IMG/VR virus record: IMGVR_UViG_3300043675_000007
Coordinates: 4,556 to 68,555 of that record
Direction: 5' to 3' (one strand)
Source of the DNA: a virus
DNA length: 64,000 nt
Of this stretch, positions 9,456 through 52,298 are shown one piece after another (positions within the stretch are counted from its first letter, which is position 1; each line of letters begins with the position of its first letter). The translations under genes and the position numbers were made by a program. The notes under the pieces are model-generated. The model was not told the origin of the DNA. It saw only the letters and a program-made list of their open reading frames with translations, and did not search any database.

Positions 9456-11113
9456 CAGCTGACGACGCCCTTGACATTGGGTCCGCTCGAACCGGAGACG
9501 AACACTGCGGTGCCGCCGGAGAGCTCGATCGCCTTGCCCGCTGCGCCGCCATTGGAGAAGGCACCGAAGTGTCCTGCGTGCGTCGTCCCAGGATTCGTGC
9601 CGTTCGCACCCACTGCACCAAAGTCGCCGCCAGGTTGCGCCGTGCCGATGCTGCCCGTGCCGTTATTGGTACCGGTGCCAGCGGCGCCGAAGGTGCCATT
9701 GGGGCCCGTCGAGGCATCGCCGCCATCCTGCGCAATGACACTGCCGCCGCCGATGAAGACGCCGCGTCCGCCGCGTCCGCCGCGACCGCCGCCTGCGCCG
9801 CCACCGCCGCCACCGCCGTTGCCAAGACCGTTGCTGCCGCCACCGCCATCGTCCGCGCCGGATGCGCCTCCTCCACCGCCGCCGCCCCAAATGAAGCCAC
9901 CGGCATTGGTGATGTTGAAGGTCGATCCGGACCCAGGGCCCAAGATGGCTTTGCCGCCGGGCTTACCCAGCGAGGCAGAGAGCACCGTGGCGCCGGAACC
10001 GGGAAAGCTCGCCACCGCCCCATCGCCGCCATCACCGCCCTTGCCGATGATGTAGCCCAAGTTGATCAGGTTGATCGTGCAGCCGGAGATAAGACCCGAG
10101 AGGTCGATCGCTGGCGTGAGGGGATTGGAAGCCTCAACGATTACGCCTTGTGCTACCAGAATGTTGATCGTCGCCGGAGCCCCCAACGTTCCAACAATGG
10201 CCTTTAAATTCCAGTCGAGGCAGTTGCTCGCGATGGTGATCGGCAGCGTGGTGCCGGAGCCTGCGTTTAAGTTTCCAGTCTGGCTCACCAGCCACTTATT
10301 GAGCGCGGCGTTGTAGAGCAGGCTGAATTTGTCCACCGCGCCTGGACCTGTGCCGAGCACCGGGTTGACGCCGTTCTGAAACAGGAACACCGCATTCCAC
10401 GTGAGCAGGCGCGAGCCCGTGCCGTCCTGAACCACGAGCAAGTCGATCTTCATGCCATCGTGCACATTCGCGGGCGCACCCATCACGCGATTGCCGGTCA
10501 GGGTGAGGCTCTGGCTGTTGCCCAGGTTGCAGTCGATGATCGTCGTCGGCAGCTCGGTCGCATTCTGAAAGGGGAAGCTCGTCGGGATACTGATCGAGTT
10601 CAAGACGATCGTATTGGCGATGACTTCCGCACCGGTGCGGGACTGGCGCACCCAGTTGGCCGCAGGGATGCCATTCAAGGAAGTGGCGCTCGAGGCGGCC
10701 GCCACCACCGCGAAGCAGTTGGTGCCATCGCACCAGATCAGGCGAATCTCGCCGGTCTGCACCGTCGTGGTCGACGTTGAACCCGAGTAGGTGAACTGCA
10801 GCGGCTGGCCGGTCTGATTGTTGATGAGATACATCTTCCCCGGCACGCTCGAGGGCACGGTCACGACAACAGTCCCCAAGGGCGGCGTGCCGACAAAGAG
10901 CAAGGAGAAAAACCTTGAGGTCGACGCGGCGCCTGGCGATAAAGCGGGCAGGGAGAAAGTCGTCGCACTGCCGATGTTGATCGCGGTCCAGCCGGTGATC
11001 GAGGTATCGAGCAGGTTCAGCGCATCGGAATTGAGCGTCGCTCCCCATGTGTTGTTGTACGCGCCGGTCGCTGGCAGGCGCACTTGCAGGAAAGTCGTGA
11101 ATGAATCAGCCAT
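9455..11113 (-). CDS. tail fibre protein with Gly-rich C-terminal domain
   Basis: N-terminal TWGATLN..LLD fibre-attachment motif, QDGTGSRLLTW segment, and a long Gly-rich C-terminal region. Confidence 0.75.
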   Translation of the reverse strand: MADSFTTFLQVRLPATGAYNNTWGATLNSDALNLLDTSITGWTAINIGSATTFSLPALSPGAASTSRFFSLLFVGTPPLGTVVVTVPSSVPGKMYLINNQTGQPLQFTYSGSTSTTTVQTGEIRLIWCDGTNCFAVVAAASSATSLNGIPAANWVRQSRTGAEVIANTIVLNSISIPTSFPFQNATELPTTIIDCNLGNSQSLTLTGNRVMGAPANVHDGMKIDLLVVQDGTGSRLLTWNAVFLFQNGVNPVLGTGPGAVDKFSLLYNAALNKWLVSQTGNLNAGSGTTLPITIASNCLDWNLKAIVGTLGAPATINILVAQGVIVEASNPLTPAIDLSGLISGCTINLINLGYIIGKGGDGGDGAVASFPGSGATVLSASLGKPGGKAILGPGSGSTFNITNAGGFIWGGGGGGGASGADDGGGGSNGLGNGGGGGGGAGGGRGGRGGRGVFIGGGSVIAQDGGDASTGPNGTFGAAGTGTNNGTGSIGTAQPGGDFGAVGANGTNPGTTHAGHFGAFSNGGAAGKAIELSGGTAVFVSGSSGPNVKGVVS

Positions 11114-16668: not shown

Positions 16669-17577
16669 TTAAGCCGGTGTCACGCCAAAGAGCGTCACCT
16701 GCGTGGAAGCATCGACCGGCTTGATGAGCGCCGAGTAGAAGCTCGAGCCGTTCAAAGCGGCGGTGGCCGTCACCGTGCCGCGCACATCTCCGGTGGTGGA
16801 GGTAGCCGGGCTCGTGACATCCGCCTTAACAAAAGTCGGCACATCGGCCAAGTCATTGAAGGCACCTGCGAAGAAATCACCCGACTGGGTGCGAAATGGC
16901 AGACCCAACACGTTGCCGGTTCCCACCGTGGCCGCGGTCACCGTGGCATTGAAGCTGAACGAGAGGACGGTCGAGAAGGCCTTCTTACCGGTGAAAGCCA
17001 CCCCTGATGGGCTCGCTTCGGTTTGTGGCTGGCCATATATGTCGAGGCCGACGACCGTCAGGATGGCCGTACCGGTCCAGGCGGCAATGACGTTGCGCGC
17101 CACATCGAGAACACCGCCCACCGCGCCATTGATGAGGCCATTCACGCCGCTGGTGACACCTTGCGAGAGCGCGATCGCATTCGCGGTGCCCAAGACCGGG
17201 GGCTGGCCGCCGACGGTGATGGTTGCCGTGACGCCATTGACCAGGCCCGCGCTGGTGCCATAGCCGCCGCCGGTCTGCGGAAAGCTTGCCGGGAGGAAGG
17301 GACACGTGGTCGCCCCGTTGGTGAAGATGCCATTTAGGACTTCGCCATCGGAGAAGGTGATCGGATAGATGCCGGATGCGCCGGCCCAGTTGGCAGACAG
17401 GGTGCCGGAGACCGCGCCAGCGGCGAGGGTTCCGGTGAAGGCCGCAGCACGATTGCCTACCGGCTTGAATCGGTAAAACTCGTGGACTTCACCACCGGGC
17501 TTGCCGGCCTGGTAATTGCCGAGCGCGGCGCGTCCGAAGAAAAGCTGATTCGCTCGAGACAGTAATTGGCGTGACAT
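16669..17577 (-). CDS. capsid decoration/head fibre protein
   Basis: Immediately after the major capsid gene, with AGGAG RBS. DVARNV, G.DIYGQ..TE and GKKAF motifs. Confidence 0.6.
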   Translation of the reverse strand: MSRQLLSRANQLFFGRAALGNYQAGKPGGEVHEFYRFKPVGNRAAAFTGTLAAGAVSGTLSANWAGASGIYPITFSDGEVLNGIFTNGATTCPFLPASFPQTGGGYGTSAGLVNGVTATITVGGQPPVLGTANAIALSQGVTSGVNGLINGAVGGVLDVARNVIAAWTGTAILTVVGLDIYGQPQTEASPSGVAFTGKKAFSTVLSFSFNATVTAATVGTGNVLGLPFRTQSGDFFAGAFNDLADVPTFVKADVTSPATSTTGDVRGTVTATAALNGSSFYSALIKPVDASTQVTLFGVTPA

Positions 17578-17664: not shown

Positions 17665-18570
17665 TTAATTTCCAGAGGCGGCGGCACCTCGAGGATTCGT
17701 CCAGCCCTGGCTGTAGCGCTCGCTGATCTTGTAGCGCAGGTTGCCCGTCTCGAAGTCTCCCTCGAGGCCCTTCTTCAGGGAGCGGCGGTTAAATGCCCGC
17801 AGGCCATCCGGCACATCCGTGATCAAGAACCACTGCGTGGGGTTGAACAGATACCGATTGACGGAGAAGCCGTCGCGGATCGTGCCCAACTTGAACAGCG
17901 CATTGATGTTGTTATCGCCGGTGTCCGGCTGATACGGCGTCATCAGCAGACGTGCTGCGACGAATTGCAGTTCGGTCGGGATGACGAGCTTCTTGATCAT
18001 CGCGCGCACCGGAATCTGCCGCTCATCCGTCCACTCAGCAATCTGGATGCTGATCTGCTCCAAGGCCGCTTCCGACAATTGCGCGGATGTAGCGAGCATG
18101 TTGGACAGGACCCCTCCGCCGCCAAGTGGGTGCGCGGTGGAGAAAAGTGGGACTTGATCGCCGCCCGGATTGGTGGCCGAGAAACCGAAGTTCAGGATAT
18201 TGGTGCGGTTCAATTCCTTCGAGTACTTCATCGAGCGGCCCATCGCGCGAGCGATCTGGCTGCCCATGGTCAGGTACAAGTTGTCTTCGACCGCTTCCTC
18301 GGTGATGGCGACAGCCTTGACGATCGTGGCGTGCTGGTAGCGCGACACGAAGGTTTCGAACATATCGTCGTACTCGACCGCACTGCCTTCGGGCTTGGTC
18401 TGCCCGGGGCCGGTGCCAGCCATCATCACGTCCTCTTCGTATGCCTTCTCGGAGGGGCTCTCGACGAAGATATCCGGCCAGAGGTCCGGATACTCCGTGT
18501 AGGCCAGGCCGACAACGGCATTCAAACCAAGCTGCAGTTGCTTGCGTTCGTCTGTTCTTAAGATGGTCAT
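17665..18570 (-). CDS. major capsid protein (HK97 fold, Mu gpT-like family)
   Basis: SEKAYEE, KPEGSAV.YD, ITEEAVEDNLY, GGDQVPLFSTAHP and DFETGNLRYKISERYS.GW.NPR motifs. AGGAG RBS. Confidence 0.9.
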   Translation of the reverse strand: MTILRTDERKQLQLGLNAVVGLAYTEYPDLWPDIFVESPSEKAYEEDVMMAGTGPGQTKPEGSAVEYDDMFETFVSRYQHATIVKAVAITEEAVEDNLYLTMGSQIARAMGRSMKYSKELNRTNILNFGFSATNPGGDQVPLFSTAHPLGGGGVLSNMLATSAQLSEAALEQISIQIAEWTDERQIPVRAMIKKLVIPTELQFVAARLLMTPYQPDTGDNNINALFKLGTIRDGFSVNRYLFNPTQWFLITDVPDGLRAFNRRSLKKGLEGDFETGNLRYKISERYSQGWTNPRGAAASGN

Positions 18571-22493: not shown

Positions 22494-23002
22494 CAGCCCA
22501 ACTTCCCGGGGAGCTCGGCCGAGACGTTCTTGACGCTCTCGCTCAACTTCACCCAAAAGGCGGTTGGCAAACTCGGTGAGGTTCCCAAGCGCAAACGGAC
22601 CTTGTGGCGCGGTTTTTTGCCTCCCAGCAGCTTTCTAACCTGCTCCACCGTGAATTCTGGACGTTTGCGCCACCATAGATACCCAATCTCGCAAGTGCCG
22701 TTAAGTTCGGCGTGCACGGCATCGACAATGGTCTGGGCGCGGCTCTGCACGTCCTCGACGCTGTCCCCGATCATGCCGAAGTTGTAATAGACCACCCGTT
22801 GAACTAAGCGCACTGCGCCGGGGGAGTGACCGGGCTCAATCTCGGCGTTGTCGTTCGCAAACCAATCGAGCGGGATCTCGAAGTATGACTGCGGTGGCCC
22901 CTCGAGCTCGTACACGTGCGGCTCGGTGCGCAGATCCACGTTGGGCAGCATGGCGGCGAGGTTCGCCGTGTTGATTTCCAGCGTCTCACCTTTCTCAGAC
23001 AT
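22493..23002 (-). CDS. hypothetical protein
   Basis: Coupled ORF in the late operon, containing YLWWRKRPEF. Confidence 0.5.
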   Translation of the reverse strand: MSEKGETLEINTANLAAMLPNVDLRTEPHVYELEGPPQSYFEIPLDWFANDNAEIEPGHSPGAVRLVQRVVYYNFGMIGDSVEDVQSRAQTIVDAVHAELNGTCEIGYLWWRKRPEFTVEQVRKLLGGKKPRHKVRLRLGTSPSLPTAFWVKLSESVKNVSAELPGKLG

Positions 23003-23516
23003 GTTTGCTGCCGGCCGGTGGTGAGCGCCATGAAGCTGCCTCGAGGCATGCGGCGCGATCGCCGATGGCGTACCGACGGTCAAAGTCCCCCACCTGCCAA
23101 TAGTGATACCAGGCGTAGCTCGCATTGCTCGGCCGATCGAACCGGCCGCAATAGCGCTGGCTGCCATCCTTGCCAGCGTCGTAGCCCAACAGGAATTCGC
23201 GCGAGACGCGGTGCCGGTCAGACTCTTGGCTGCGGAAAGCAGCTTCGAAGGCCTTGAACTGCTTGAGCAGCGAGACGGCCGTCTGGTCGATCACCTTGCC
23301 GCCATCGTCCACCCGCACCAGGTCGTGGATGTCCGGACGCAGGCCTGCGGTGTACGCCTTGTAGTACTCGAGCCAGTTGGCCACCTCTTCCTTGCTCGGC
23401 ACCCAGCGCGGCGGGGGCGGCGCCGGGACGATGTTCGCGTTGATCGCAAGCACGGGGAGCGCAGTCGCCGCGGCCAGGCTCATCGTCATTTGAATGAACT
23501 GACGGCGATTCATCAC
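22995..23516 (-). CDS. hypothetical protein with a twin-arginine (Tat)-like N-terminus
   Basis: NRRQFI followed by a hydrophobic stretch (MTMSLAAATALPVLA). Confidence 0.55.
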   Translation of the reverse strand: MMNRRQFIQMTMSLAAATALPVLAINANIVPAPPPPRWVPSKEEVANWLEYYKAYTAGLRPDIHDLVRVDDGGKVIDQTAVSLLKQFKAFEAAFRSQESDRHRVSREFLLGYDAGKDGSQRYCGRFDRPSNASYAWYHYWQVGDFDRRYAIGDRAACLEAASWRSPPAGSKHV

Positions 23517-25028: not shown

Positions 25029-25245
25029 TCGCCATCTCCTGCTCGAGGGCCTGTTCTCGGTAGAACGATTGATTCTGGCCGCCAGCATAGAGGCGTGCCA
25101 ACACCGCGGCAACGCCGGAGAAGCCCATACCAAGTTCATCGGATGCGGCCGCGAAGTGCCGCGGGGAGATATCAGACGTGCCGGCCTTGAGCTTGGAGCG
25201 AAGAAACCCGCGCGCTGCGCGCACCTGCGGCGCCGGCATGCTCAT
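25021..25245 (-). CDS. hypothetical protein
   Basis: ATGA overlap with the portal stop codon. Confidence 0.45.
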   Translation of the reverse strand: MSMPAPQVRAARGFLRSKLKAGTSDISPRHFAAASDELGMGFSGVAAVLARLYAGGQNQSFYREQALEQEMANE

Positions 25246-28007
25246 TTGACCGAGCCTCCCATATGAGAATCGGCGTGCGCTTCCTCGATCGCAGCGAGCT
25301 TGTCCGCCTGGTCCATGGACTGCTGGTGCGTCTGATCCGACTGCTCCATCCCCGCGGCGTGGCTCTCGGCACCCTGTTCAAGGGAAGCGCCGTGCGCTTC
25401 GCTTCCCTGTTCGAGCGACTGGTCATGGGCTTCCTCGCCCTGCTCCAGCTGCTGGCCGTGCGCCTCGTCCCCGTGCTCGATCTGTTGCTCGTGGGTATCG
25501 TCCTTGTGCGCGAGCTCGAGTTGGTGCGCCTCGTGATCCTGCCGCAGGCCGTGCTCGTGCTCCTGCTCGCCTTGGACCAAGTCGGCAACATGGCTTCGCT
25601 CCCCGTGCTTGAGCTTCTGCTCCGCCGCGGCCGCATCGCGCATGTTCTTCGCAGCGCCGGTGTTGTTGAGGCGCGCCTCTTGGAAGTCGAGTGCCTGGTC
25701 TTTGCGCTTCTCTTCATTATCGAACGCTTCCTGCAGCCTGCGCTCCTTCGCCTGGAATTCCTGTTCGGTGGCATCGAGACGCGCATGCGCCTCGGCCTGG
25801 ATCATTTGGATCTTCGCATCGGACTCAGCCTTCTTCGCAGCCGCTGCGGCATCCGGGGTGCCGGGCTTCGGGGCTGGGTGGGGCAGCTGCGCGATGATGC
25901 CGGCGACGCGCGCGGTGATGGTCTGCTCGGTGTGCGGGTCCAATCCCACCGGCTCTCCATCCTGGTCAAACTTCGGTTGGATGCCCGCCGCGGCCATGAT
26001 CTGCTTCAAATAGCTCTTGGCCATGTGATCGCGGATGTGGGCCATCATCGCCGGCTGGATGACGTTGCTGAACACCTGGGGCGGGAATAACGCCTGTGCC
26101 CGACCGATCGCATCTTGGTGGATGGCCATGTGTGCCGCATCGTCCTGGTATGGGTACACGCGCACCGGCAGGCCCGCGAAGATGTTGGAATTCTCCGAGA
26201 CCGCGTCCAAGTACTGCGGGGTCTTGGCTTTCGGTCCAATCGCATCGACGTTCGGCACCTTCAAGGCCACCAACATGCGCCGGTGGGCTTCCGCCCGATG
26301 CTCCGGCGGATACAGGTCCGGGGCTTTCTCCTGGAGCTCGAGCACGGCCTGGGCGCGCATTACGCGCTGGGTATCGCTCGCCACCCCGGGATCGGTGACA
26401 CAGATGACATCGACGCCCGGGGCGAAGTCGGACTTGAGTAGGAATTGCTCTTCGTCGCCGATCTTGTAGTCGTAGCGCTCCGGCATGAAGTCTTCGATGA
26501 GCTCGCAGAGCATGGCGAGCTCTTGAGACATCGAGACGTGCAACCGTTTGTGAATCGCGCTGATCGGCTTTTGCGCCTGCTCGATCAGGGCGATAGTCGT
26601 GCCGACGGGGCCTGTGTTGTTCCCATCCCCTACCGCGCTGTCGGTGGTGCCGGCAAAGCGCTGGCCGCTCGTGACCAAGATATTGAGCAGCTGGAAGAGC
26701 GCGGGGCTCGGTTCCTTGAACGGCGGCGTGTAGAAGCTCTTGGCAAGGTCCTCCCCGGTGCTGTCGCATTGCTTCCATACGCCATGCTCGAGGCGAAATT
26801 CGCCCGCGATCTTCGCTTCCTTGCTGACAAAGCCGCCTTGAAAGTTCGCGGCAAGCGCCGAATCCAAGAGCGCATTGACCGCGCCAGAGGCGGCAAGACC
26901 GAGTGAGCCGATGACGTGGGGGTATCCCCATCCGTAGAAGCCCAGCCCGGGGAGGAACTGATGGTGCGCGAACCAGATGCGCTTTTTGCGCTCTTTATTG
27001 TCCGACTTGCGCCAGTTGCGCCGGACCATGAGCACCTGCTCGTTCGCCGCATCGATGATGACGATGTAGGGGCGCAGGCCCGTGTCGCCATCCTTGAGCT
27101 CGGCGCCGGCACCCTTCGCGTCCGCATCAATTTCCAAGTCGATGTGGTACTCGAGCATCGGGTAGAGGCGGTCTTTCTCGTGGTACGTCGGCTGGCGCAG
27201 GTCCGATTGATCGGAGGCCGGCGCGTGCATCGCGAGGCCTTGCGCAGGCTGCGGCAGGTAGATATCGAGGAACATGCCAATCAGCATGGCCCGGTCGATA
27301 TCCTCGCCCGTCATGGTGAACTTCCAGGCGTAGCGCGGCATGCTCTTGAGATCCGTGCCGGCATACGGGGCGATGAAGTTGGTCGCCTGCACGTAGCGCA
27401 GCACCGGCAGGCCGGTGGTGAAGTCCTGGCTTGCGCGCCGAAAGGCACTGCCGCCCATCGGCAGGTACATGCACATCTTGTCGGTGTCGTTGAAATAGCC
27501 GTCATCGACATCGGTCAGGTAGTGGTTCAAGAAGGTGCGTACGCGCTTGGCGCGCGCCATCTTTGATTGTGTCTGGGTGCCCAAGACCTTGGTCTCGGCC
27601 GGCCCTTGCGGCGGGAAGAGCTCCACGATCGCATTGGCTTGGAAGCGCACCGTCGCCTCCATGAGCATCGGGTGGGTCACATCGTGCCCGTCCTCCTGCT
27701 CATCATCACCGCCGGGCGGCGTGTCCTTGAGCCCCAGCATGGCCATCGCACACTTTTCCCGGTCCTCCCAGTCCTTGCGGCTGGTGATATCGACTTCGGA
27801 GAACTCCTTCAAGCGCATGGCGAGCAGTTTTCGATCGCTGCTGTTCATGTCCTCGGCTAGGTTTTCATCGAAGTCCCCGCTCTTTGGGATGCGGGCCGTG
27901 ACGATGCCCGGGCCCTCGACCGAGACGCTCCCGTCCTGGCCGCGGATGACTTTGCTATCGCCGAAGGCACTCACCCCTGGTTTGCTATCCGGGGTGGTGG
28001 TCGCCAT
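25242..28007 (-). CDS. portal protein with an extended coiled-coil C-terminus
   Basis: HPMLMEATVRFQA...ELFP..GP, FLPGLGFYGWG, PFKEPS..LFQLL and PVGTTIALIEQ...SAIHKRLH portal motifs. Confidence 0.88.
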   Translation of the reverse strand: MATTTPDSKPGVSAFGDSKVIRGQDGSVSVEGPGIVTARIPKSGDFDENLAEDMNSSDRKLLAMRLKEFSEVDITSRKDWEDREKCAMAMLGLKDTPPGGDDEQEDGHDVTHPMLMEATVRFQANAIVELFPPQGPAETKVLGTQTQSKMARAKRVRTFLNHYLTDVDDGYFNDTDKMCMYLPMGGSAFRRASQDFTTGLPVLRYVQATNFIAPYAGTDLKSMPRYAWKFTMTGEDIDRAMLIGMFLDIYLPQPAQGLAMHAPASDQSDLRQPTYHEKDRLYPMLEYHIDLEIDADAKGAGAELKDGDTGLRPYIVIIDAANEQVLMVRRNWRKSDNKERKKRIWFAHHQFLPGLGFYGWGYPHVIGSLGLAASGAVNALLDSALAANFQGGFVSKEAKIAGEFRLEHGVWKQCDSTGEDLAKSFYTPPFKEPSPALFQLLNILVTSGQRFAGTTDSAVGDGNNTGPVGTTIALIEQAQKPISAIHKRLHVSMSQELAMLCELIEDFMPERYDYKIGDEEQFLLKSDFAPGVDVICVTDPGVASDTQRVMRAQAVLELQEKAPDLYPPEHRAEAHRRMLVALKVPNVDAIGPKAKTPQYLDAVSENSNIFAGLPVRVYPYQDDAAHMAIHQDAIGRAQALFPPQVFSNVIQPAMMAHIRDHMAKSYLKQIMAAAGIQPKFDQDGEPVGLDPHTEQTITARVAGIIAQLPHPAPKPGTPDAAAAAKKAESDAKIQMIQAEAHARLDATEQEFQAKERRLQEAFDNEEKRKDQALDFQEARLNNTGAAKNMRDAAAAEQKLKHGERSHVADLVQGEQEHEHGLRQDHEAHQLELAHKDDTHEQQIEHGDEAHGQQLEQGEEAHDQSLEQGSEAHGASLEQGAESHAAGMEQSDQTHQQSMDQADKLAAIEEAHADSHMGGSVK
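25296..25592 (-). repeat. nine tandem 11-aa (33-nt) His-initiated repeats in the portal C-terminus
   Basis: HVADLVQGEQE HEHGLRQDHEA HQLELAHKDDT HEQQIEHGDEA HGQQLEQGEEA HDQSLEQGSEA HGASLEQGAES HAAGMEQSDQT HQQSMDQADKL. Confidence 0.8.
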
Positions 28008-28117
28008 TGATTCGTAGGCCAGGGGGGCGCGCTCCGTGAGGAATAGGGCGCCAAGGAGCGTACAGCGGCAGGAATTGGGCTTACATGCCAGCGGCTGGCA
28101 AGTGCCCTATATGTCGT

Positions 28118-28576
28118 TCAATTGCCGGGCATATGCCGTCCAGTTAGCGTTTGCGTGCTGGGAGCGGCCTGCCGTGGTGCTGGGTCGTCCATGATGATCG
28201 CGGTCCCGCGGTAGCCGGAAAGCCCGGTGCGGGCAGCATAGTGTGGCCACGACTCGGCGTACACGTTGCTGCACCACTGCCCATGACGGCGTTGGTAGCG
28301 AGCGCGGCGGATGCGCTTGCCTTCCATGCGCGCCTCGAAGCGGGCTCGGGCAAGTTTGCGCAGCTGCGGCGCCGGCATGTCGCAATCGTAGTCGAGCAGG
28401 TCAATCTCGGGGCAGTACTGACCGGTGGATCTGTGCGTGGTGCGCACCGTCAGAAGATTGCCGATGCTCGCGTTGTCGACGAGCTCGTTGTAGTGCGCAA
28501 GTAAATCGCGCCCGGCGCGGCTGGCGGCGGCCTGCGCCAGAATCTTGCGCGCCGTTATCACGCGGCCAGGCGCCAC
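28118..28576 (-). CDS. hypothetical protein
   Basis: ORF on the operon strand overlapping the upstream stop. The C-terminal GLSGYRGTAIIMDDP is terminase-motif-like. Confidence 0.45.
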   Translation of the reverse strand: MAPGRVITARKILAQAAASRAGRDLLAHYNELVDNASIGNLLTVRTTHRSTGQYCPEIDLLDYDCDMPAPQLRKLARARFEARMEGKRIRRARYQRRHGQWCSNVYAESWPHYAARTGLSGYRGTAIIMDDPAPRQAAPSTQTLTGRHMPGN

Positions 28577-29334
28577 TGCCGATCATCGGCGGCAGGGGTC
28601 TTAAAAAGCGCCGAGGTCGAGAAGTGGATGTCCTTGATGTAGTAGTAGTTGCCGAGCGCGTTCTGTGGCATTGAGCCCCACGTCATGTTGTCCTGCAGGT
28701 TGAATTTCAACGCCTGCGTGCCCACGGGGAGGTTATAGCCACCGACACCGAGCGGTACCTTATAGGTCGCCCAGACATTCGGCTGCGGCGCGGGGCCGAA
28801 TGATTCCACCGACTTGGTCAGGCCGCCGCCGGCAATGGTCGTATCGCCAGAGCCCTCAAAGCCGCTTACCCAAGTCTGCCCGGCCCGCGTCGGCATGAGC
28901 ACAAAGACCAAGTACTTGAACCCCGTGGTGTTGAACACCAGCAGGCTGTTGGGCGGATTCTGGCAGAACGGCTGAAACCCTCCGCCGCCGGCATGGCCAT
29001 CGGTCCCCATCGGGGTCGTGGCCAAGATCTTCATTGCTAAGGCACCATCCGGGGCGGTCTGGCTATCGATTTCCTGCGACCCGCCATAGTTGAAGTTGCC
29101 GGTCCAGGTGCTCTTGCCGCTCAAGACCACCTGTGAGTTGCACGAAGACCCCAACGTGGGCGGCGGTATGACAGGCGGGGCGACGACGGGTACCGGCACC
29201 ACTGTGCTCTGGCCAGCGACGGCGATCGTCACCTGGGTGGGTGTGACGGTAACGGTAAGCGGGATATTGACGGTGGTAGCTGTGACGGCCGCCGCGGCCA
29301 TCAGACCGGCGATCAAGAGTGCGATGCGTTTCAT
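28558..29334 (-). CDS. secreted protein with a putative carbohydrate-binding (galactose-binding-like) domain
   Basis: Sec-type signal MKRIALLIAGLMAAAA, a Pro/Val linker, then a beta-rich domain (FNTTGFKYLVF...W.TYKVPL...YYIKDIHF). Confidence 0.6.
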   Translation of the reverse strand: MKRIALLIAGLMAAAAVTATTVNIPLTVTVTPTQVTIAVAGQSTVVPVPVVAPPVIPPPTLGSSCNSQVVLSGKSTWTGNFNYGGSQEIDSQTAPDGALAMKILATTPMGTDGHAGGGGFQPFCQNPPNSLLVFNTTGFKYLVFVLMPTRAGQTWVSGFEGSGDTTIAGGGLTKSVESFGPAPQPNVWATYKVPLGVGGYNLPVGTQALKFNLQDNMTWGSMPQNALGNYYYIKDIHFSTSALFKTPAADDRQWRLAA

Positions 29335-29381
29335 GGATGTAAGCCTTCTAAAGGTGAATAGGGGGAAGTGTCGGGTCAGTC

Positions 29382-29528
29382 TTATCTGCCGACAAAGAAA
29401 ATGATGAGCAGGATGAGCAGCAGCAGGCCGCCGCCGCCATAGCCGTAATGGCCCCACCCGCCCCAGTAGCCGCCGCCGAAAGCACCAAATGCCAAGAGCA
29501 CCAACAGGATCAGCAGGATCGGGTTCAT
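29382..29528 (-). CDS. small Gly-rich membrane protein (DUF3309-like)
   Basis: MNPILLILLVLLAFGAFGGGYWGGWGHYGYGGGGLLLLILLIIFFVGR, translated by hand. GGAG RBS. Confidence 0.65.
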   Translation of the reverse strand: MNPILLILLVLLAFGAFGGGYWGGWGHYGYGGGGLLLLILLIIFFVGR

Positions 29529-29540
29529 GGACTTTCTCCG

Positions 29541-29927
29541 TTAGTCAACTGGGAACAGTCTCCACATGAACCGCTCGAAGAGCGTCGGTTTGTGCGTGAG
29601 CACGTACTGCGCCGTGTGGGCGAGGCGCGGGGGAATGATCAATTTGGTTGGCCGCACGGTGAACGCTTCATTGTCGCGCAGCTGGTTGAGCATGTCCTCG
29701 AGGGACTTCTCGTTGAGCGGCGCATCCGTGCCCGCGGTGTTGCGGTAGAAGCGCTTGAGGCCGTCCGGCTGATCGGTCTTGATGTACCAGGCAGTGTCGC
29801 TGACGAAGTAGTCTGCCACCTCGACTTCGATGTCCTCACGACGCGGCAGCCGCAGGGTAGATCCCGCCAGCGCGGTGATCGCTGGCAGGGCGGCGAGCAT
29901 CCCAAGAAACTTGCGCCGGCTGACCAT
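29541..29927 (-). CDS. Tat-signal protein containing circularly permuted major-capsid-like segments
   Basis: SRRKFL plus a hydrophobic stretch. The two segments align by eye to the major capsid protein in reversed order. Confidence 0.7.
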   Translation of the reverse strand: MVSRRKFLGMLAALPAITALAGSTLRLPRREDIEVEVADYFVSDTAWYIKTDQPDGLKRFYRNTAGTDAPLNEKSLEDMLNQLRDNEAFTVRPTKLIIPPRLAHTAQYVLTHKPTLFERFMWRLFPVD

Positions 29928-29945
29928 GGGCGCGGATCTTACCCC

Positions 29946-31304
29946 TTAATTGCTGTGCGAGCCGCTCCAGTAGGTAAGGTCCGTCACTTTCGCGGGTGAA
30001 CCGCCCGGTCCGTAGATTTGCACTGGGCCCTTGAACTCGAACACATCGGAGCCGTCGCGCTGAACCTTAAATTGCGGAAAGCCCGGCGCCATTGGCGCCA
30101 CGAATGAGGTGATGCCAGCCGGCGCGCCCGTAGCGTTCCCGTTGATCATGAGCGTTGCCGGCGCGGTCAAAAACGCAAGAAGCTCGATGTTGGCGGTCTC
30201 GATGCCCGGGGGCACGATCTTGAAGGGCAGCAGTTGGTTCGCATGCGCGGCGGTCGAGAGCATCGGCTTGTAGCACCAGTACGCGACGTCCTGGGTGATG
30301 CGCGGCTGCACGCCGGTGACAAACCAGGTGATGTAATAACCGAGCAGGTCATAGAAGCCGGTGCCGATATTGGGGTTAAGCGTCGCATCGGTGCACGGCG
30401 AGACTTGACCGGACTCGGAGTAATCGTTCCACGTGACCAGTTGGATCATCTGGCACATGGGCGCATTGATCGCCGCAAGGAAGCCGGCGCGCAAAGACCC
30501 CGTGTTGCCCGCCTCCCAGAAGCATTGAGCGTCGGGGCGAAACTGCTGCGGCAGCACGGGCATCATAAAGGAGGGCGGGCACGATTTGGCCGCGTCGGGC
30601 GTTGCCGTCCCCCACCCACCTACGCCGTGAGCGATGGCCGCGTAGGGGTCTGAGGCCGGTTCGCCCAACAGCACTGGGACAAAGGCGACATCGATATCCT
30701 GGGCATTGAGGCCGGCAATGACCTGCTGCCACCAGGTGAGCGGCATGCGAGTCGCATTGAACGCCGTAAAGAGCATGCGCCCATCGGGGAGGCGCGCGAC
30801 GTTCGGTTGGGTCGAGCACGCCGCGAGCACCGAGACCGCCTGCGCGACGGTGAGGCCTGCGCCCAAAGAACTCATATCGAGCATCGGCACGACCCAGAAG
30901 CGCAGGTCCGCAGCTAGGGCGGCCTTGAACAGCCACGCGAGATGCCCGTTAGGATTTAGCTGCCCGGTCGGTAAGATCGCATCGGCCAAGGAGAGGACAT
31001 CGAACTCGAATCCCGTAACACCTCGAGCAATCGCCCTGGTGACTTCCAGCTGCAGGTTCGCGATTTCGTAACCCGGGGTCGCCGCGCCGATGGCCACGGG
31101 CGGCGGCCGCTGGCGTAGGAACCCGCCGTAGGGTGCGTGCTTGCCGCTCTCCCCGCCCACGGTGAGGAACTGCGTCTCGTAGTAGTCGGTCAAGGACGGC
31201 GCATTGTCGATCGAGAGCGGGAAGGGGCAGAAGTAATGCGCGACGACGCGCTTCGGCGAGTTGAAGAACACGTCCGCAGGGGGCATGACGAAGGGTAATT
31301 TCAT
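29946..31304 (-). CDS. glycoside hydrolase family 71 (alpha-1,3-glucanase-like)
   Basis: VVAHY, A.A.GVTGF..D, and IQLVTWNDYSES motifs typical of GH71/GH99-like TIM barrels. Confidence 0.75.
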   Translation of the reverse strand: MKLPFVMPPADVFFNSPKRVVAHYFCPFPLSIDNAPSLTDYYETQFLTVGGESGKHAPYGGFLRQRPPPVAIGAATPGYEIANLQLEVTRAIARGVTGFEFDVLSLADAILPTGQLNPNGHLAWLFKAALAADLRFWVVPMLDMSSLGAGLTVAQAVSVLAACSTQPNVARLPDGRMLFTAFNATRMPLTWWQQVIAGLNAQDIDVAFVPVLLGEPASDPYAAIAHGVGGWGTATPDAAKSCPPSFMMPVLPQQFRPDAQCFWEAGNTGSLRAGFLAAINAPMCQMIQLVTWNDYSESGQVSPCTDATLNPNIGTGFYDLLGYYITWFVTGVQPRITQDVAYWCYKPMLSTAAHANQLLPFKIVPPGIETANIELLAFLTAPATLMINGNATGAPAGITSFVAPMAPGFPQFKVQRDGSDVFEFKGPVQIYGPGGSPAKVTDLTYWSGSHSN

Positions 31305-31561
31305 TTAGTTTCCTTGGGTGATGGGCGCAGCCCGAAACGGAGCGTCACGACGAGGGAGGTGGGCCCATTGGTCGTACCGAGCAGAACCACCCCGGGGAAG
31401 CGCGTTGTGATCTTCTCGGTATAGCGCGTCTGTTTCTGCTTGTCTTTGCGCTCGAGCATCACGCCGACCCGGTTGCCGGCTTTGGCGGCATTCCCGATCG
31501 CATCGATGCGCTTGTCTTCCTCGAGCCTGTGCAGGTCGAAGATGGCTTTGGGTACGCTCAC
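31301..31561 (-). CDS. hypothetical protein
   Basis: Coupled to the GH71 start (ATGA). Contains the AAGGA RBS of that gene. Confidence 0.45.
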   Translation of the reverse strand: MSVPKAIFDLHRLEEDKRIDAIGNAAKAGNRVGVMLERKDKQKQTRYTEKITTRFPGVVLLGTTNGPTSLVVTLRFGLRPSPKETK

Positions 31562-31703
31562 AAAATGGGGGCCGGGTACGTAGAGTCTCTCCCGTCAGGG
31601 ATCACGAAGTCCGAGCGTTGCTTTCCAGGTGAAGACCAATCTGCGCGGCTCGAATGAATCGCTCCCGTTCCGATGGACGGTACCCAAACTACGGAGGGCC
31701 CCC

Positions 31704-31967
31704 TCACGTTGTAATTCCTGTCATTGACTTCGAGCTTATGCGATTGCGCGAGTACCAGTAAAGAGGATGCACGCGCGCACCCTGCGGAATCTGCGTCGCC
31801 GGCCAGCGCAGGCAGCCTAAGTGCTTGCGATACGGTCGGTTCCTGTTCTGACGAATCGTCTGCACCAGGTACGCGGATCCTGCCGGCGTTTGAAGGTAAT
31901 CGCCTGATTGCAGGTCGCGGCAGCCGTCGTAGTAGAGCTTGCACGGTGTATAGGGCTGGCGCTTCAC
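31704..31967 (-). CDS. hypothetical protein
   Basis: GTGA-coupled ORF. Confidence 0.4.
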   Translation of the reverse strand: MKRQPYTPCKLYYDGCRDLQSGDYLQTPAGSAYLVQTIRQNRNRPYRKHLGCLRWPATQIPQGARVHPLYWYSRNRISSKSMTGITT

Positions 31968-32278
31968 GCCTTCCAGCAATCAGGGGCGAGCGGCGCGCCA
32001 TCCGCGTGTGCAATGTATACGCCCGCGGTCAGGTTGAAATGGATGCCGCAGGGCACGTGGCGCTTGAGTGAGGGGGTGATGGTCGGGGCCTGCAAGTTGC
32101 CGTCCCAGGTCCAGAATACTTCCCGATTCGTGCGCCGATTCTCGCCCACCTTCTCCAAGCACACGATGTCCGGATACTGGCAGCCGCACGGGCAGTTGCA
32201 CTGGAAGTACCACCCGGAATTAACGGGGCCTTCGAATATCTTCCAAAACCCAGGCTGTGTGCTCGGTAGCTGCTGCAT
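31964..32278 (-). CDS. small Cys/His metal-binding protein (DUF6527-like)
   Basis: CPCGC...WTWDGN..APTITPSL...CGIHF. Confidence 0.6.
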   Translation of the reverse strand: MQQLPSTQPGFWKIFEGPVNSGWYFQCNCPCGCQYPDIVCLEKVGENRRTNREVFWTWDGNLQAPTITPSLKRHVPCGIHFNLTAGVYIAHADGAPLAPDCWKA

Positions 32279-32279
32279 T

Positions 32280-34121
32280 TTAGAAAAGATCCTCACTGGC
32301 GATGATGGCCGAGCCCGGGCCGACTATAAGCCCCAGGGCGCGCAGGCGTCCAAGGGTGTTGTCGACGTGGCGGCTGGTGGGGTCGTAGCCGGTTGCCACA
32401 GCAAGATCATCGCGCGTGACCGGGTTCGGCCACTTGTGTATCAGGAAGGTCAAGAATCCGGCCTCCGCCTTGCCAGATTTTGCCAGCCACGCCTCGCGCA
32501 ATCCTGCACCGGTGGGCATGAGTGTCCGCGTGCCCAGTGCAACCAGGCCTGGCCCCGTAATCTGGATGTTGGTCCCAGGTCCCTCGACGTAGCCGGCGCC
32601 GCGCAGGCGTCCCAGGGTGTTATCCACGTGGCGGCTCGTCGTTGAGTACAGCGAGAAGCGGGCCAATTGATCGCGGGTCGTCACCCTGTTCTGCCGTTGC
32701 GCGAGCACATTCAAGAACGTGCGCTCCGCGGCTCCGAGCACATTTATCTCCACCTTCTCGAGCGAGTCCTTCGATAGGCGCGTCTTGCGCACCGGCTTGC
32801 CTGCGGGGTGCGCCGCGCTGTTGAGCGCTACCCCATCCCCGACCTGCGGGTTCATCAGCACCTCCGTGCCGAGCAACTTCATCGAGATTTCCCTCTGCGC
32901 CTCAATCGATGGATAGAGAAGGGACACGGCCAGCGCGCTCTTGACGTGGGCACGTGACCTATCCACCTGGGCGTCCATCGTCATCTCAAATGCCCCGATG
33001 GTCTCATCGAGCAATGCTCGTTCCCGGTCGACCGCTATGGCTTCGCACGCCTTCCAGCCTTCCTGGTGCCCGCGTTTGTACGAACCATAGGCCATCGCGT
33101 TGTGATCAACGGGGCACTGGTGCACAACCGTGGGCATCGGCTGGGGGCCAAGCCGATGCTGTTGCTCTATCCTGGTAATTGAACCCTCGAGCTCCGAAAT
33201 CCTCTTGCGCAGCAGGGCCGGGTCATTGGCTTCCGCCTCGGCGACCGCCTCCCCGATGATGCTGCGCAAGGCCTCGACGTCCACCGGCGCGGTCTTGACC
33301 ACTTGGGCGAGGTCATCGTCTTTATCCGGCGTCTTTGAATTATCGAAGGTCTTCGCCTTCGGGAATTCCATCAGCGTGAAGAGGTTCGCCTCGCCCGAAC
33401 ACACCCAGCCGGTGCCGGTTTTGAGTTTCGGCATGGAATCGGTGATCTGCTCGCGCAGCGCCTTATCCTTGACGTTGGCCTTCATCCATTTGACGACCGG
33501 CTCCTGATCAGCGGGCTGCGTCATACGGTGCACGATGACCGTCTCGCAGCTACCGAGTACCGCATTGTGCAGCGCCTGGACGCGCTGATCGAGCACGATG
33601 AGCCTGATCCCCTTCGACCGGCCGCCGGTCGCCACCGCCTTGGCGTAGTGGATGCTCATGTTCTCCTTGCCGAAGCCGGCGCGCTCTTTGGGGGCAAATT
33701 CGTGCGCTTCCTCGATGACGAGGTAGAGCACGCCGCGGATCTTCATCATCAGGCGCGGGATGAAGTCCACAAAGAAATGCTGCGCCCCACCCGGGGGGAA
33801 TTGGGCCATATCGAGTATGGAGAGGCGCAGCGAACCGTTGGCGACCACGTCCGCAATGGCTTTGCCGGACGTGTGATGTAGGGGTACATGTCCATGCGGC
33901 CCCCCCAGAATCGTGAAAGGCAGGCCGGCGCGCTTACCGTCCGCGCTCGAGGTCAAGCCCCACCAGTCAGACTTCACCGGATCGATGATGCAGACGCGGT
34001 ATTCCTCCGCGACCACCTGCTCAACGCACACCTTCCCGGTCGTGGTCTTGCCGGATCCGGTCTTTCCTAAGATGCCGATGTGTTGGGCAAGGATGGCATC
34101 GGGAACGTGGAACTGGCTCAC
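32280..34121 (-). CDS. HerA/FtsK-like (DUF87) ATPase with two C-terminal winged-helix repeats
   Basis: Walker A GKTGSGKT, IIDP, Walker B LVIEEAHEFAP, GRSKGI..., and QR motif. Duplicated SRHVDNTLGRLR. Confidence 0.8.
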   Translation of the reverse strand: MSQFHVPDAILAQHIGILGKTGSGKTTTGKVCVEQVVAEEYRVCIIDPVKSDWWGLTSSADGKRAGLPFTILGGPHGHVPLHHTSGKAIADVVANGSLRLSILDMAQFPPGGAQHFFVDFIPRLMMKIRGVLYLVIEEAHEFAPKERAGFGKENMSIHYAKAVATGGRSKGIRLIVLDQRVQALHNAVLGSCETVIVHRMTQPADQEPVVKWMKANVKDKALREQITDSMPKLKTGTGWVCSGEANLFTLMEFPKAKTFDNSKTPDKDDDLAQVVKTAPVDVEALRSIIGEAVAEAEANDPALLRKRISELEGSITRIEQQHRLGPQPMPTVVHQCPVDHNAMAYGSYKRGHQEGWKACEAIAVDRERALLDETIGAFEMTMDAQVDRSRAHVKSALAVSLLYPSIEAQREISMKLLGTEVLMNPQVGDGVALNSAAHPAGKPVRKTRLSKDSLEKVEINVLGAAERTFLNVLAQRQNRVTTRDQLARFSLYSTTSRHVDNTLGRLRGAGYVEGPGTNIQITGPGLVALGTRTLMPTGAGLREAWLAKSGKAEAGFLTFLIHKWPNPVTRDDLAVATGYDPTSRHVDNTLGRLRALGLIVGPGSAIIASEDLF

Positions 34122-49143: not shown

Positions 49144-50814
49144 TTAAGCGTACCGTTTGCGGGGAGCGCGCTTCCACGCCCACGGGGAAATTTCGTCCCG
49201 CTCATCGTCCGGTAGCTGCAAGTCGTGGTAGCGGCGCATGTACATCCAGGCCATGACCAAGGTTGAGACGTAATCGTCATGATCACCATTTGGGAACTTC
49301 GAGGCTTCTTCGATGACCTTGTACGCGAAGGGGCGCGGCGGGTAGAAGATGCACCCCTTCTCGAGCATAAGGCTGGCGGGGTGGGCTCGCGCGATGAGAT
49401 CGCCCTGCTTGCCCGGCTTGCCACTGGAGCCTGCGAGGGTGACCGCTTTGATGGGCAATCGCTTGCGGCGCAGCTCCTGAATGAGAGAGTGACCCGAGGA
49501 TTTCTTTTCCACCAAGATCCAGTCCGGTGCGAACTCGTTATTGGCCTCGATGGCAGCGGTCCGCAGGTCCGGATACGCCAGGCGCTCCTGCATCGCATCG
49601 AGCAGCATGGCGCACACGCGCCGCTGGCCGGCCACGGGACGCTTTAGCTCCTTATCCCAGTGCATCTCCTGGTGATCGAATAGGCCCCAGGTCGTGCGCG
49701 CCGAGTAGTCGTCCTCTTCCTCTTCCTCAAAGGCGGTATCCCAGACCTGAATGATTTCGGAAAACCGGGGCATGGGACGTTCGGTATTGGGCGACATGCG
49801 CCATTCCGGCTGTATCCACGGGCGCCACCACTTGCGCTTCAAGATCAATCCGCCCTCACCCGTGGGCGCCTGGTTTTGCTGTGCCTGCCAGCCGCGCTCG
49901 GACATGTTGGCCTTCTCGTGGTTGACCGTCTTGGCGCTCATGCGCTTTGGGTCAAGTACCTCGAGCTCCAACTTTCGCGGGTCGGTGAAGATTGGGCCGT
50001 CATCCAACAACGGGCCGTCCCCCTTATTCTTGAAGGTGATGCAGCGGGATCCGGGGTTGAACTCCTGCGGGATGATCAAGTGGCACCAGCGCTTGCCCTC
50101 GCGCTCGAGCACGTGGCCGAAGATGTCCATGTCGTGCGTGCGCTGCCCGACGTAGACTTTCTTCGCCGTGTCCGGATTATTGACGCGCGAGCGCCAGGCG
50201 TTGTCGTGCCAGGCAAGGGCGGAGTGGCGTACCGCGTCCGATTCGATCTTCTTCGCATCGTGCGGGTCATCGAGGATCTGCGTCGTGCCGCCGACGCCGG
50301 TAATGCGCCCCTGCAAAGAGGCGGTCATGCGGTAGCCGCCCTTGCGGTTGCGGTACATGCCGACCTGGTTCTCATCATCAAAAAGCTCAATCTCGCCGGG
50401 CCACTGGCGCTGATACCACTCGGAGGTGATCAAGCGGCGCGAGAGAATCGCGGCATCATTGGCGAGCACCTGGTCAACGCCGGCGGTTAGGAACTGCTCG
50501 CCCGGGATGTGCAGCCAATGCCACGCGGGCCACAGCACCGAGACGATCATCGTCTTTGACATGCGCGGCGGGATGTTCACCATCAGGAAGCGAATCTCGC
50601 CCAAGGACACGTAGGCCAAGTGGTCGCAAAAGGCGTCCATGTGCCAGTTCCAAATCGGCGCCTCGGGTAGTAACTGCGTCCAGGCGCGTTTGCAGAAGGT
50701 GGCGAGTGAGCGGCGTGCGGAGGCGGCCGCGAGCTCGGTGAACGAGGTGCGCAGCGCTTGGGGCGTAAGCTTGGGTGCGGGCTTTAGCTGATCGCCCGTC
50801 AAGAGGTTGTACAT
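49144..50814 (-). CDS. terL: terminase large subunit
   Basis: NIPPRMSKT (Walker A), ITG.GG...ILDDPH (Walker B), VGQRTH, WDTAF...DYSA, VEKKSSG and FPNGDHDDYV motifs. Confidence 0.92.
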   Translation of the reverse strand: MYNLLTGDQLKPAPKLTPQALRTSFTELAAASARRSLATFCKRAWTQLLPEAPIWNWHMDAFCDHLAYVSLGEIRFLMVNIPPRMSKTMIVSVLWPAWHWLHIPGEQFLTAGVDQVLANDAAILSRRLITSEWYQRQWPGEIELFDDENQVGMYRNRKGGYRMTASLQGRITGVGGTTQILDDPHDAKKIESDAVRHSALAWHDNAWRSRVNNPDTAKKVYVGQRTHDMDIFGHVLEREGKRWCHLIIPQEFNPGSRCITFKNKGDGPLLDDGPIFTDPRKLELEVLDPKRMSAKTVNHEKANMSERGWQAQQNQAPTGEGGLILKRKWWRPWIQPEWRMSPNTERPMPRFSEIIQVWDTAFEEEEEDDYSARTTWGLFDHQEMHWDKELKRPVAGQRRVCAMLLDAMQERLAYPDLRTAAIEANNEFAPDWILVEKKSSGHSLIQELRRKRLPIKAVTLAGSSGKPGKQGDLIARAHPASLMLEKGCIFYPPRPFAYKVIEEASKFPNGDHDDYVSTLVMAWMYMRRYHDLQLPDDERDEISPWAWKRAPRKRYA

Positions 50815-51476: not shown

Positions 51477-52298
51477 CTACTTGCCAGTCTCCGGCATCAA
51501 GACCCCGCCGGGTACCTTGGTGGCTTCCTCGTATTCCTCTTTCGTGAAGCCCAACTGCTGCGCAAACTCAGGTCCGACGAGTGGCATCAGGTCTTGCGTG
51601 AGGGCGAGAATCTTGGAGGTGGGGACATCATCTAAGTGCAAATGCGCATGCAGGTGGCGGTGCTGGTGGTTCTCCCAGATGATCTTTTCCAAGAACATGC
51701 CGAGTTGCCGGCCCATGCTGGAAAGATACTGATGCTGCTCGCGCGGATCCGGTAGACGGTATTGCAGCACCCCGCCGACGGAACCGGTGACATGCACGGT
51801 GGCCAGCTGCTCGCGGGTGAGCTCGTGGATGGGTTTCCAGCGCGTGGCGTGCACCGGCTTGCCTTCCCAGGTGAGCACTTCCTCGCTCTCCACTTCCGCG
51901 CCGCTCTTCGCATCCTTCTTTCGCACCGTGCGGGTCATCGGCGTCTCTGAGCGCTCGATAAAGTCCTGCGGGTTGAAGAGCGCCTTGCGTGCCATCGTTT
52001 GCAGCACATCGGCCTGTTCGACATCGAGGCTCTTGGCCACTTCCCGGCTCTTAGCCTCCCGCAAGGGGCGTAGGTACTCCGCAAAGCGCTCGAGCTTGGC
52101 TAGGGCCCGGGTGCCGGCTTTGCGCCCGCCCTTGAAGCCTGCCTCCTTGTACGCGCGCGGGGTATCGAAGTGTTCGAGCCAGCGGGCGCAGAAGACCTTG
52201 TCCGATTCTCTGATCGGGAAGTGGTGGGAGGATAGGGGGCGCTTGACGGCTTTCTTTTTTACCGGGGCGCTGTTTTTCGCTCGGCCTTTTCCCGCCAC
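51477..52298 (-). CDS. terS: terminase small subunit (putative)
   Basis: FCARWL..FD..RAY.EAG HTH, then VLQTMARKA.FNP.DF and LSSMGRQLGMF. Located upstream of terL. Confidence 0.65.
   Translation of the reverse strand: MAGKGRAKNSAPVKKKAVKRPLSSHHFPIRESDKVFCARWLEHFDTPRAYKEAGFKGGRKAGTRALAKLERFAEYLRPLREAKSREVAKSLDVEQADVLQTMARKALFNPQDFIERSETPMTRTVRKKDAKSGAEVESEEVLTWEGKPVHATRWKPIHELTREQLATVHVTGSVGGVLQYRLPDPREQHQYLSSMGRQLGMFLEKIIWENHQHRHLHAHLHLDDVPTSKILALTQDLMPLVGPEFAQQLGFTKEEYEEATKVPGGVLMPETGK

Follow-up and report, generated by a model that had tools for sequence, protein, structure and literature searches.

A 64-kb window of the IMG/VR virus record IMGVR_UViG_3300043675_000007 (68,555 bp, CheckV completeness 100%), which looks like a podophage-type genome, encodes a 128-residue protein, P0002, that joins a twin-arginine translocation (Tat)-type signal to two segments of the HK97-fold major capsid protein in swapped order. 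Hereafter, the window denotes this whole 64-kb stretch. P0002 belongs to a family of small metagenomic proteins that retain the twin-arginine motif and are subject to purifying selection. We give an even chance to the interpretation that P0002 is an exported, capsid-derived accessory protein of a clade of uncultured soil podophages and not a component of the shell. HK97-fold capsid proteins form the shells of phages, herpesviruses, encapsulins and gene transfer agents; in this case, pieces of such a protein have become an independent small protein that is under selection and apparently exported. The features that carry this interpretation are as follows.

29541..29927 (minus strand, stop codon included): gene for P0002, supported by its open reading frame (ORF), its relatives and purifying selection
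29865..29927 (minus): residues 1–21, twin-arginine-type signal (SRRKFL, h-region, ALA before G)
29739..29822 (minus): segment B, residues 36–63, similar to capsid residues 236–263, the beta strands after the A-domain (BLASTP, capsid profile)
29595..29741 (minus): segment A, residues 63–111, similar to capsid residues 157–210, the A-domain helix-strand-helix (hhalign, profiles)
29544..29594 (minus): residues 112–128, conserved tail KPTLFERFMWRLFPVD, in which no capsid counterpart was detected
17665..18570 (minus): resident HK97-fold major capsid protein P0001, 301 residues, homologue of both segments
17941–18102 and 17782–17865 (minus): counterparts of segments A and B, respectively, in the capsid gene

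P0002 contains two capsid segments in reversed order

The resident capsid protein P0001, whose ORF contains the capsid strings quoted in the initial annotation, matches phrog_371 (major head protein, 1.2e-11) and PF10124 (Mu-like gpT, 1e-4), and its relatives in cultured Roseobacter, Pelagibacter and Planktothrix podophages share 45–48% identity with it. The AlphaFold2 model of P0001, with a predicted local distance difference test score (pLDDT) of 77.5, was matched by Foldseek to encapsulins and to the capsids of SU10, HK97, T5 and T1 (E 2e-10 to 1e-7). Segment A comprises a helix (167–178), a strand (192–197) and a second helix (199–209) of this model, which we take, from the HK97 topology, to lie in the A-domain. 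The strands at 235–270 correspond to segment B, and those at 279–298 to a third segment, C, that occurs in other members of the family.

BLASTP aligned residues 37–64 of P0002 with capsid residues 237–264 at 12 identities out of 28 (E 1e-5), the same count that the initial annotation of this DNA had reached by eye. For segment A, hhalign placed positions 66–120 of the family profile on positions 155–211 of the capsid profile with a probability of 95.4% (E 1.8e-8), the inputs being a 25-member family alignment (A1) and a 27-member capsid alignment (A2). In the reverse direction, with the capsid profile on P0002, capsid residues 236–263 come first and 157–210 second. The segment order is therefore swapped, as seen in both search directions and far beyond chance. 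The initial annotation had proposed this swap and had assigned both stretches to the C-terminal half of the capsid protein, which agrees with their positions in the capsid model.

When the family-profile hidden Markov model (HMM) was run against 1.84 billion representative proteins, 98 matches were obtained at E <= 1e-3, of which 42 are small (65–158 residues), 46 measure 297–314 residues, nine measure 159–257 residues and one is an unrelated protein of 3463 residues. The 46 capsid-size proteins show two matched stretches each, with E values from 4e-7 to 1e-3 for the whole library, and the nine of intermediate length, also with two stretches, are probably partial capsids. P0002 alone scores weakly against capsid families (PF10124, E 0.13 and 12 bits against a cut-off of 20.1; phrog_371, E 0.012), and PF10124 matches 12 of the 52 family members with complete N-termini, with a best E of 8.6e-9. 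Among PDB sequences, the best match of the family profile was to an unrelated GntR regulator (E 0.11), and the capsid profile found no match at E <= 0.01.

The homology of residues 63–111 and 36–63 places the origin of P0002 among the HK97-fold capsids of the Mu gpT-like group (PF10124 Mu-like_gpT; PF25209 Phage_capsid_4). However, P0002 does not present a complete capsid fold in native order; its 128 residues include capsid residues 157–210 and 236–263 only, in reversed order, and represent just about 75 of the 301 capsid positions. Helix 5–20, strands 48–88 and helix 101–127 of the capsid model have no counterpart in it. In contrast to these capsids, P0002 lacks the N-arm, the E-loop and the spine helix, carries an added export signal and is not predicted to adopt a shell-forming fold. 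Thus, P0002 is not a capsid family member in any functional sense.

The capsids closest to segment B are P0101–P0103 (82% identity over 17 residues); the resident capsid holds rank 72 among the 164 high-scoring segment pairs (HSPs) in that bin, with 165 capsid-size proteins searched. The best capsid match of segment A is P0196 (42% over 55 residues), and the resident capsid is not among the best matches listed. The rank of 72 out of 164 speaks against the idea that P0002 still mimics the phage's own capsid or co-evolves with it. On the basis of this rank for segment B and the absence of the resident capsid from the listed best matches for segment A, we likewise rejected continuing gene conversion between the P0002 gene and the capsid gene.

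A conserved family retains the signal and the C-terminal part

A protein search recovered 27 relatives of P0002 with 43–80% identity and lengths of 72–146 residues, all metagenomic. An exhaustive profile search added more distant relatives, whose diversity extends far beyond the gene cassette of the window. The family set comprises 57 small relatives (65–158 residues), all from uncultured metagenome or viral contigs, and the N-terminus is complete in 52 of them. No longer or fused forms were found among 712 candidates at E <= 1, which is weak evidence against any fusion.

Proportions of nonsynonymous (pN) and synonymous (pS) differences were counted by the Nei-Gojobori method for the window and four further loci, that is, for 10 pairs of five sequences. 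In the signal, pN amounts to 0.00–0.15 against a pS of 0.14–0.58 across all 10 pairs, and in the C-terminal part to 0.15–0.27 against 0.19–0.67 in the six full-length pairs. The middle region, which includes segment B, shows a pN of 0.36–0.59 against a pS of 0.36–0.75, and it also has the most indels in the family alignment. This pattern indicates that the P0002 gene is translated and selected, in agreement with the earlier view of a real, stand-alone gene. Judging from these substitution counts, selection keeps the signal and the helix-strand(-helix)-tail unit, while segment B is drifting under relaxed constraint. Segment A retains columns that are conserved in capsids.

The capsid profile resolved the 57 members into several architectures. 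Segments B and A in that order, as in the window, occur in 23 members, segment A only in 14, and C-A in seven; the remainder are B only (four), C only (three), B-C-A (two), C-A-B (two), C-B (one) and B followed by an unassigned piece, B-x (one). B, C or both precede A in 34 of the 57, and none shows the native order A-B-C. Every order observed is a rotation of A-B-C (B-A, C-A, B-C-A and C-A-B), so that the same segments recur in rotated order relative to the parent, as in circular permutation. Segment B escaped the capsid profile in 27 of the 57 relatives. In members with segment C, the C-terminal end of the capsid (…GWTDPRG…) joins the start of segment A directly; P0176 consists of capsid residues 271–300 followed by 159–273. 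Segment C, which P0002 lacks, is 62–68% identical to capsids over 24–31 residues, capsid-invariant residues included, whereas the A segments of the same members are 29–62% identical (top HSPs 29–47% over 45–107 residues, and one 62% over 37 residues).

One signal type precedes several passengers

P0002 starts with M-V-S-R-R-K-F-L, followed by 17 uncharged residues (GMLAALPAITALAGSTL; mean Kyte-Doolittle value 1.53) that end in A-L-A-G, and then by RLPRRED. It thus contains a motif of the S/T-R-R-x-F-L-K type (S3RRKFL8), an uncharged h-region and a c-region, which bears out the Tat-type N-terminus that had been read from the sequence. Among the 52 members with complete N-termini, only R4, R5 and F7 are invariant, with P93 nearly so. 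RRxF is present in all 52 and RRxF[LIVM] in 51; the motif is followed by 12 or more uncharged residues in 47, and a basic residue stands right behind that stretch in 47. At E <= 0.1, the Tat signal models TIGR01409 (TAT_signal_seq) and PF10518 match 37 and 33 of the 52, respectively, and two family members are matched by the Rieske/PetC anchor model.

A second ORF of the window has the same kind of N-terminus.

22995..23513 (minus): P0242, 172 residues, between the portal and head-maturation genes

P0242 begins MNRRQF…, and its residues 1–48 align with the N-termini of distant family members (hhalign probability 95.3%, E 2.3e-8). TIGR01409 gives it 13.4 bits, below the cut-off, and its passenger has no family match. 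G001 and G022, the two closest records, were the only ones with orthologues. P0242 is likely a relative or the source of the signal module of P0002. At locus L001, a third type of passenger, P0243 (5372–5734, plus strand, 120 residues), lies behind a similar signal, and this record has three ORFs with twin-arginine (RR) signals. In the complete genome G004, a 90-residue RR-signal ORF (contig L113, 1232–1504) is located directly upstream of a capsid-fragment ORF and scores 18.4 bits with TIGR01409, above the cut-off. As far as these N-termini can tell, the phage clade places one type of signal before several unrelated small passengers. Export would then be what these proteins share, with the capsid piece as one passenger among several.

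The predicted structure is largely disordered

The AlphaFold2 model of P0002, computed from a 25-row alignment, has a pLDDT of 58.6 and a predicted template modelling score (pTM) of 0.26. Its helices span residues 4–22 (the signal), 73–85 and 100–111 (the two capsid helices of segment A) and 116–124, the last of which lies in the conserved tail and has the best pLDDT of the model. Residues 30–68 remain below a pLDDT of 50. Accordingly, the model has helices where the capsid has them and no sheet. The ESM Atlas model reaches a pLDDT of only 0.45. When the weak AlphaFold2 model was compared with 48,161 PDB representatives, the best Z was 2.4, mostly from the signal helix and thus uninformative, and an Atlas look-up of P0176 returned no usable match. 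In the Atlas feature space, the neighbours of P0002 include the small subunit of a periplasmic [Fe] hydrogenase at 0.87, which serves as a lead only.

These models do not bear out the idea of a miniature capsid protein or a folded mimic of a capsid domain, which the initial annotation had put forward and which the relaxed constraint on segment B also disfavors. An unfolded model had been named beforehand as an outcome that would speak against the initial annotation, and for the capsid-mimic idea this applies in part. The other such outcomes, the failure of profile searches to reach capsids and a unique, decayed fragment, were not observed.

Genomic setting and distribution

The P0002 gene, which starts with ATG, lies in a co-oriented accessory cassette, flanked by a DUF87/HerA-like ATPase gene on one side and the portal gene on the other. 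It is situated upstream of the portal gene, in the head-gene neighborhood. The genes of the window that are relevant to its setting are listed below.

29946..31304 (minus): GH71-like glycoside hydrolase (PF03659, 6.4e-20), upstream neighbor of P0002, listed as context
25242–28007 (minus): portal gene
16669–17577: decoration protein gene
49144–50814: large terminase subunit, TerL
51477–52298: small terminase subunit, TerS
54824–55315: endolysin-like ORF
55926–63998: giant virion- or ejection-type ORF

The cassette runs from the GH71-like hydrolase gene through the P0002 gene to a 48-residue DUF3309 membrane peptide and a Sec-signal protein of at most 299 residues. The P0002 gene starts 18 nt past the stop codon of the GH71-like gene. 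Neither the GH71-like protein of the window nor that of L001 carries a signal peptide, while the cassette otherwise codes for exported or membrane proteins. A reading of the GH71, small protein and DUF3309 cluster as a lysis cassette was rejected as the principal interpretation, because the endolysin-like ORF is located elsewhere and GH71 does not belong to the peptidoglycan hydrolase families. A scan of positions 28000–32400 for promoters and terminators yielded counts at the level of shuffled sequence. No RNA dataset containing the P0002 gene is listed, the sole listed run being DNA, perhaps from the source sample itself.

The context is known for six members: those of the window, L001, L002, L003, L004 and G004. 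In the window, L001 and L002, the GH71-like gene is directly upstream with a gap of 16–18 nt. L003 and L004 instead have a divergently transcribed gene for a secreted protein upstream. In G004, small ORFs lie upstream of the portal gene, and no gene of GH71 size is nearby.

plus strand of contig L113, 1501–1830 and 2159–2563: G004 capsid-fragment ORFs, upstream of the G004 portal gene

The related ORF of 109 residues in G004 joins an RR signal to capsid residues 253–293 and 1–41. Another ORF, ORF-b, has no signal and combines a piece of the capsid N-arm with a C-terminal piece and a Cys/His-rich tail.

The Sec-signal protein of the window (28558–29457, minus strand), whose start (…TFTIPVQVKVTPTG…) is conserved, occurs together with the family member in differing orientations, being co-oriented and downstream in the window, and divergent and upstream in L003 and L004. 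Downstream of the family member in L001 and L002, a secreted protein with an IPT/TIG domain is found instead.

The family profile was applied to 22 IMG/VR records with this type of capsid. Segment A was matched in the capsids of all 22 records and segment B also in eight of them, in swapped order; small members or a related ORF were confined to G004 and to G022, which is the record of L001. Among the seven records that are at least 87% complete, two (G000 and G004, the genome of the window counted) hold a member or a related ORF. The P0002 family thus has a patchy, accessory distribution. A tblastn search of cultured phages with P0002 gave no match at E <= 0.01, and exact peptide patterns, a method that reaches close relatives only, found no relative in bacterial genomes. 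Scans of viral contigs with P0021, P0025, P0006, P0176 and P0164 yielded no loci beyond L001, recovered a second time as L007, and L008. In L008, an actinophage-like viral contig, the tail of P0164 (…HPSWTPEQVAERL…) matches 19 residues at 58% identity (positions 10001–10057), which form the C-terminus of a 752-residue actinophage portal-like ORF. This match may reflect chance or another fragment of a structural gene, and we judged it too short to interpret.

Proposed origin

A scenario that would account for these architectures begins with a tandem duplication of the capsid gene, from which a stretch across the junction of the two copies survived with internal deletions. This junction stretch would then have been fused behind the signal module that the phage clade also sets before unrelated small proteins. 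A tandem duplication followed by differing internal deletions is, by our reading of the segment orders, the simplest inferred common origin of the architectures. The 109-residue ORF of G004 supports this scenario, since capsid residues 253–293 followed by 1–41 form a junction of C-terminus to N-terminus, as expected of a tandem copy. Duplication followed by truncation is the classic model of circular permutation, exemplified by the swaposins. The family resembles such cases in that its segment orders are rotations and the G004 ORF keeps the terminal junction, but P0002 falls short of an entire permuted domain with unchanged function, being a trimmed fragment with a signal attached. The origin of P0002 appears to be an old event, or one that took place in another lineage, because the best capsid matches of segments B and A are not the resident capsid.

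Proposed function and alternative explanations

We propose that P0002 folds or binds a partner in the cytoplasm and is then taken by its RR signal to the Tat translocase of the host. P0002 would end in the periplasm, given the A-L-A-G sequence in the subfamily of the window, and members in which the AxA cleavage site is not kept may stay tethered to the inner membrane by an uncleaved signal. There, the conserved helix-strand unit could mediate binding as a small module. Since a single strand must join a sheet, and 14 members have segment A only, the strand probably pairs with itself or with another protein. P0002 would neither build nor mimic a whole capsid subunit. From the sequence features and the cassette, the most likely function is an envelope-directed accessory role, such as superinfection exclusion or the support of neighboring exported, glycan-active proteins.

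Several observations weigh against this proposal. TIGR01409 gives P0002 15.4 bits and PF10518 gives 14.8 bits, just below the curated cut-offs of 16.7 and 22.7, respectively. AxA near the end of the hydrophobic stretch is kept in just 34 of the 52 members, so that the signal may either be cleaved or act as an anchor. The structural models are poorly folded; substrates of Tat are usually folded before export, so that an unfolded passenger would be unusual if no partner induces its folding. Among the capsids listed, none belongs to an extant tandem pair or contains an internal duplication. The contexts differ, with the upstream GH71-like gene in three cases, the divergent secreted-protein gene in two and a small Tat ORF in one. 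Export is deduced from the protein sequence, and the envelope role is a proposal.

Hydrogenase or PaoA small subunits escort signal-less partners through Tat, and P0002 might similarly bind a signal-less phage protein, with the GH71-like hydrolase as the candidate, and carry it through the translocase. As with the small escort subunits HybO, PaoA and that of the periplasmic [Fe] hydrogenase, the P0002 gene adjoins the gene for an enzyme without a signal, and the N-terminus has the S-R-R-x-F-L motif, the mildly hydrophobic h-region and the basic c-region of Tat substrates. The recurrent order of the GH71-like gene and the small gene in the window, L001 and L002, the exported or membrane nature of the other cassette products and the hydrogenase lead from the Atlas point in the same direction. 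Unlike the known substrates and escorts, however, P0002 has no cofactor-binding domain and carries a capsid-derived passenger, its export and partner binding are predicted only, and its HMM scores lie below the cut-offs. The divergent upstream gene in L003 and L004, the related ORF of G004, which has no GH71-size gene nearby, and a family diversity that far exceeds this one cassette also speak against an escort function, and the GH71-like enzyme could be released at lysis, for which a separate endolysin-like gene is available. Complex prediction with the GH71-like protein (alignment A5) and residues 23–128 of P0002 (A1) scored 0.00 against a mark of 0.32, which gives no verdict on binding. Overall, we consider an escort function distinctly unlikely. 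Alternatively, P0002 could act on capsids as a decoy for capsid-triggered defence, a poison of competitor head assembly or a membrane tether through a TatBC-engaged signal. The homology to the capsid A-domain and C-terminal strands is real, segment C is closer to capsids than the A segments of the same members, and the gene lies near the head genes. Nevertheless, the sole invariant feature of the family is the export motif, with which a decoy for cytoplasmic sensors of the CapRel or Lit type is hard to reconcile. Moreover, P0002 lacks segment C and shows relaxed constraint on segment B, other capsids are closer to it than the resident one, 14 of the 57 members retain segment A only and the models are largely disordered. 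A capsid-interacting factor is accordingly unlikely in our estimation.

T4 Spackle acts on gp5, and by analogy an exported module could bind a capsid-contacting component of an incoming virion, such as an ejected internal protein, and block genome entry. This periplasmic exclusion by mimicry would suit the export motif, the patchy and accessory distribution, the fast-evolving middle region and the giant virion- or ejection-type ORF of the phage, but the family and profile searches found no homology to known exclusion proteins; we hold it to be improbable, much as the escort function. T4 Spackle and Imm, together with the products of prophage morons, are small exported accessory proteins of phages, and P0002 is like them in being phage-encoded, small, signal-bearing, patchily distributed and part of an accessory cassette. 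It differs from them in its Tat-type route, its origin from a structural gene and the absence of sequence or profile similarity. A broader version, in which rearranged capsid pieces, exported by the clade to the periplasm or held at the Tat translocase, serve as a functional mimic of the capsid that captures incoming virion components in superinfection exclusion or docks capsid subunits at the membrane, seems to us tentative and rather unlikely. Finally, P0002 could be functionless debris, a remnant of a degraded second capsid copy that happens to stay open in GC-rich DNA. The decaying middle region with its many indels, the signal-less ORF-b of G004 and the poor predicted structure would fit such a remnant, but in both the signal and the C-terminal part pN is much lower than pS, which amounts to about 0.5, RRxF is invariant among 57 intact relatives (52 with complete N-termini), and segment A retains its capsid-conserved columns. 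This explanation is disfavored and highly improbable.

If the preferred interpretation of an exported, capsid-derived accessory protein is correct, the path from a structural to an accessory gene would have consisted of tandem duplication, trimming of the junction and capture of a signal, and one phage clade would reuse a single Tat-type signal module on several passengers. It would also provide a concrete candidate for a periplasmic protein with a retained capsid surface. A functional capsid mimic, if real, would mean that the HK97 fold has gained a new role apart from shells, and would illustrate in extant phages how a gene is born from the junction of a tandem duplication. Even as a neutral passenger, P0002 cautions against labelling such ORFs as capsid in metagenome annotation. 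The available portions of the literature on twin-arginine signals and phage capsids, and on capsid permutation, describe no signal-fused, capsid-derived small protein, and in those of phage-capsid papers that mention circular permutation, the term refers to genomes. P0002 does not constitute a categorically new kind of protein, because no new mechanism has been demonstrated.

Other genes near P0002

The portal ORF is unusually long at 921 residues, and its last ~150 residues form a repetitive tail rich in His, Glu and Gln (…HGDEAHGQQLEQGEEAHDQSLEQG…). On the other side of the cassette, the ORF at 32280–34121 (minus strand) encodes a 613-residue DUF87/HerA-type ATPase with two winged-helix-like repeats at its C-terminus. 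This ATPase weakly matches phrog_2666, which is labelled terminase large subunit (2.3e-18), while the canonical TerL is encoded at 49144–50814. A DUF6527 gene (31964–32296) overlaps the end of the ATPase gene.

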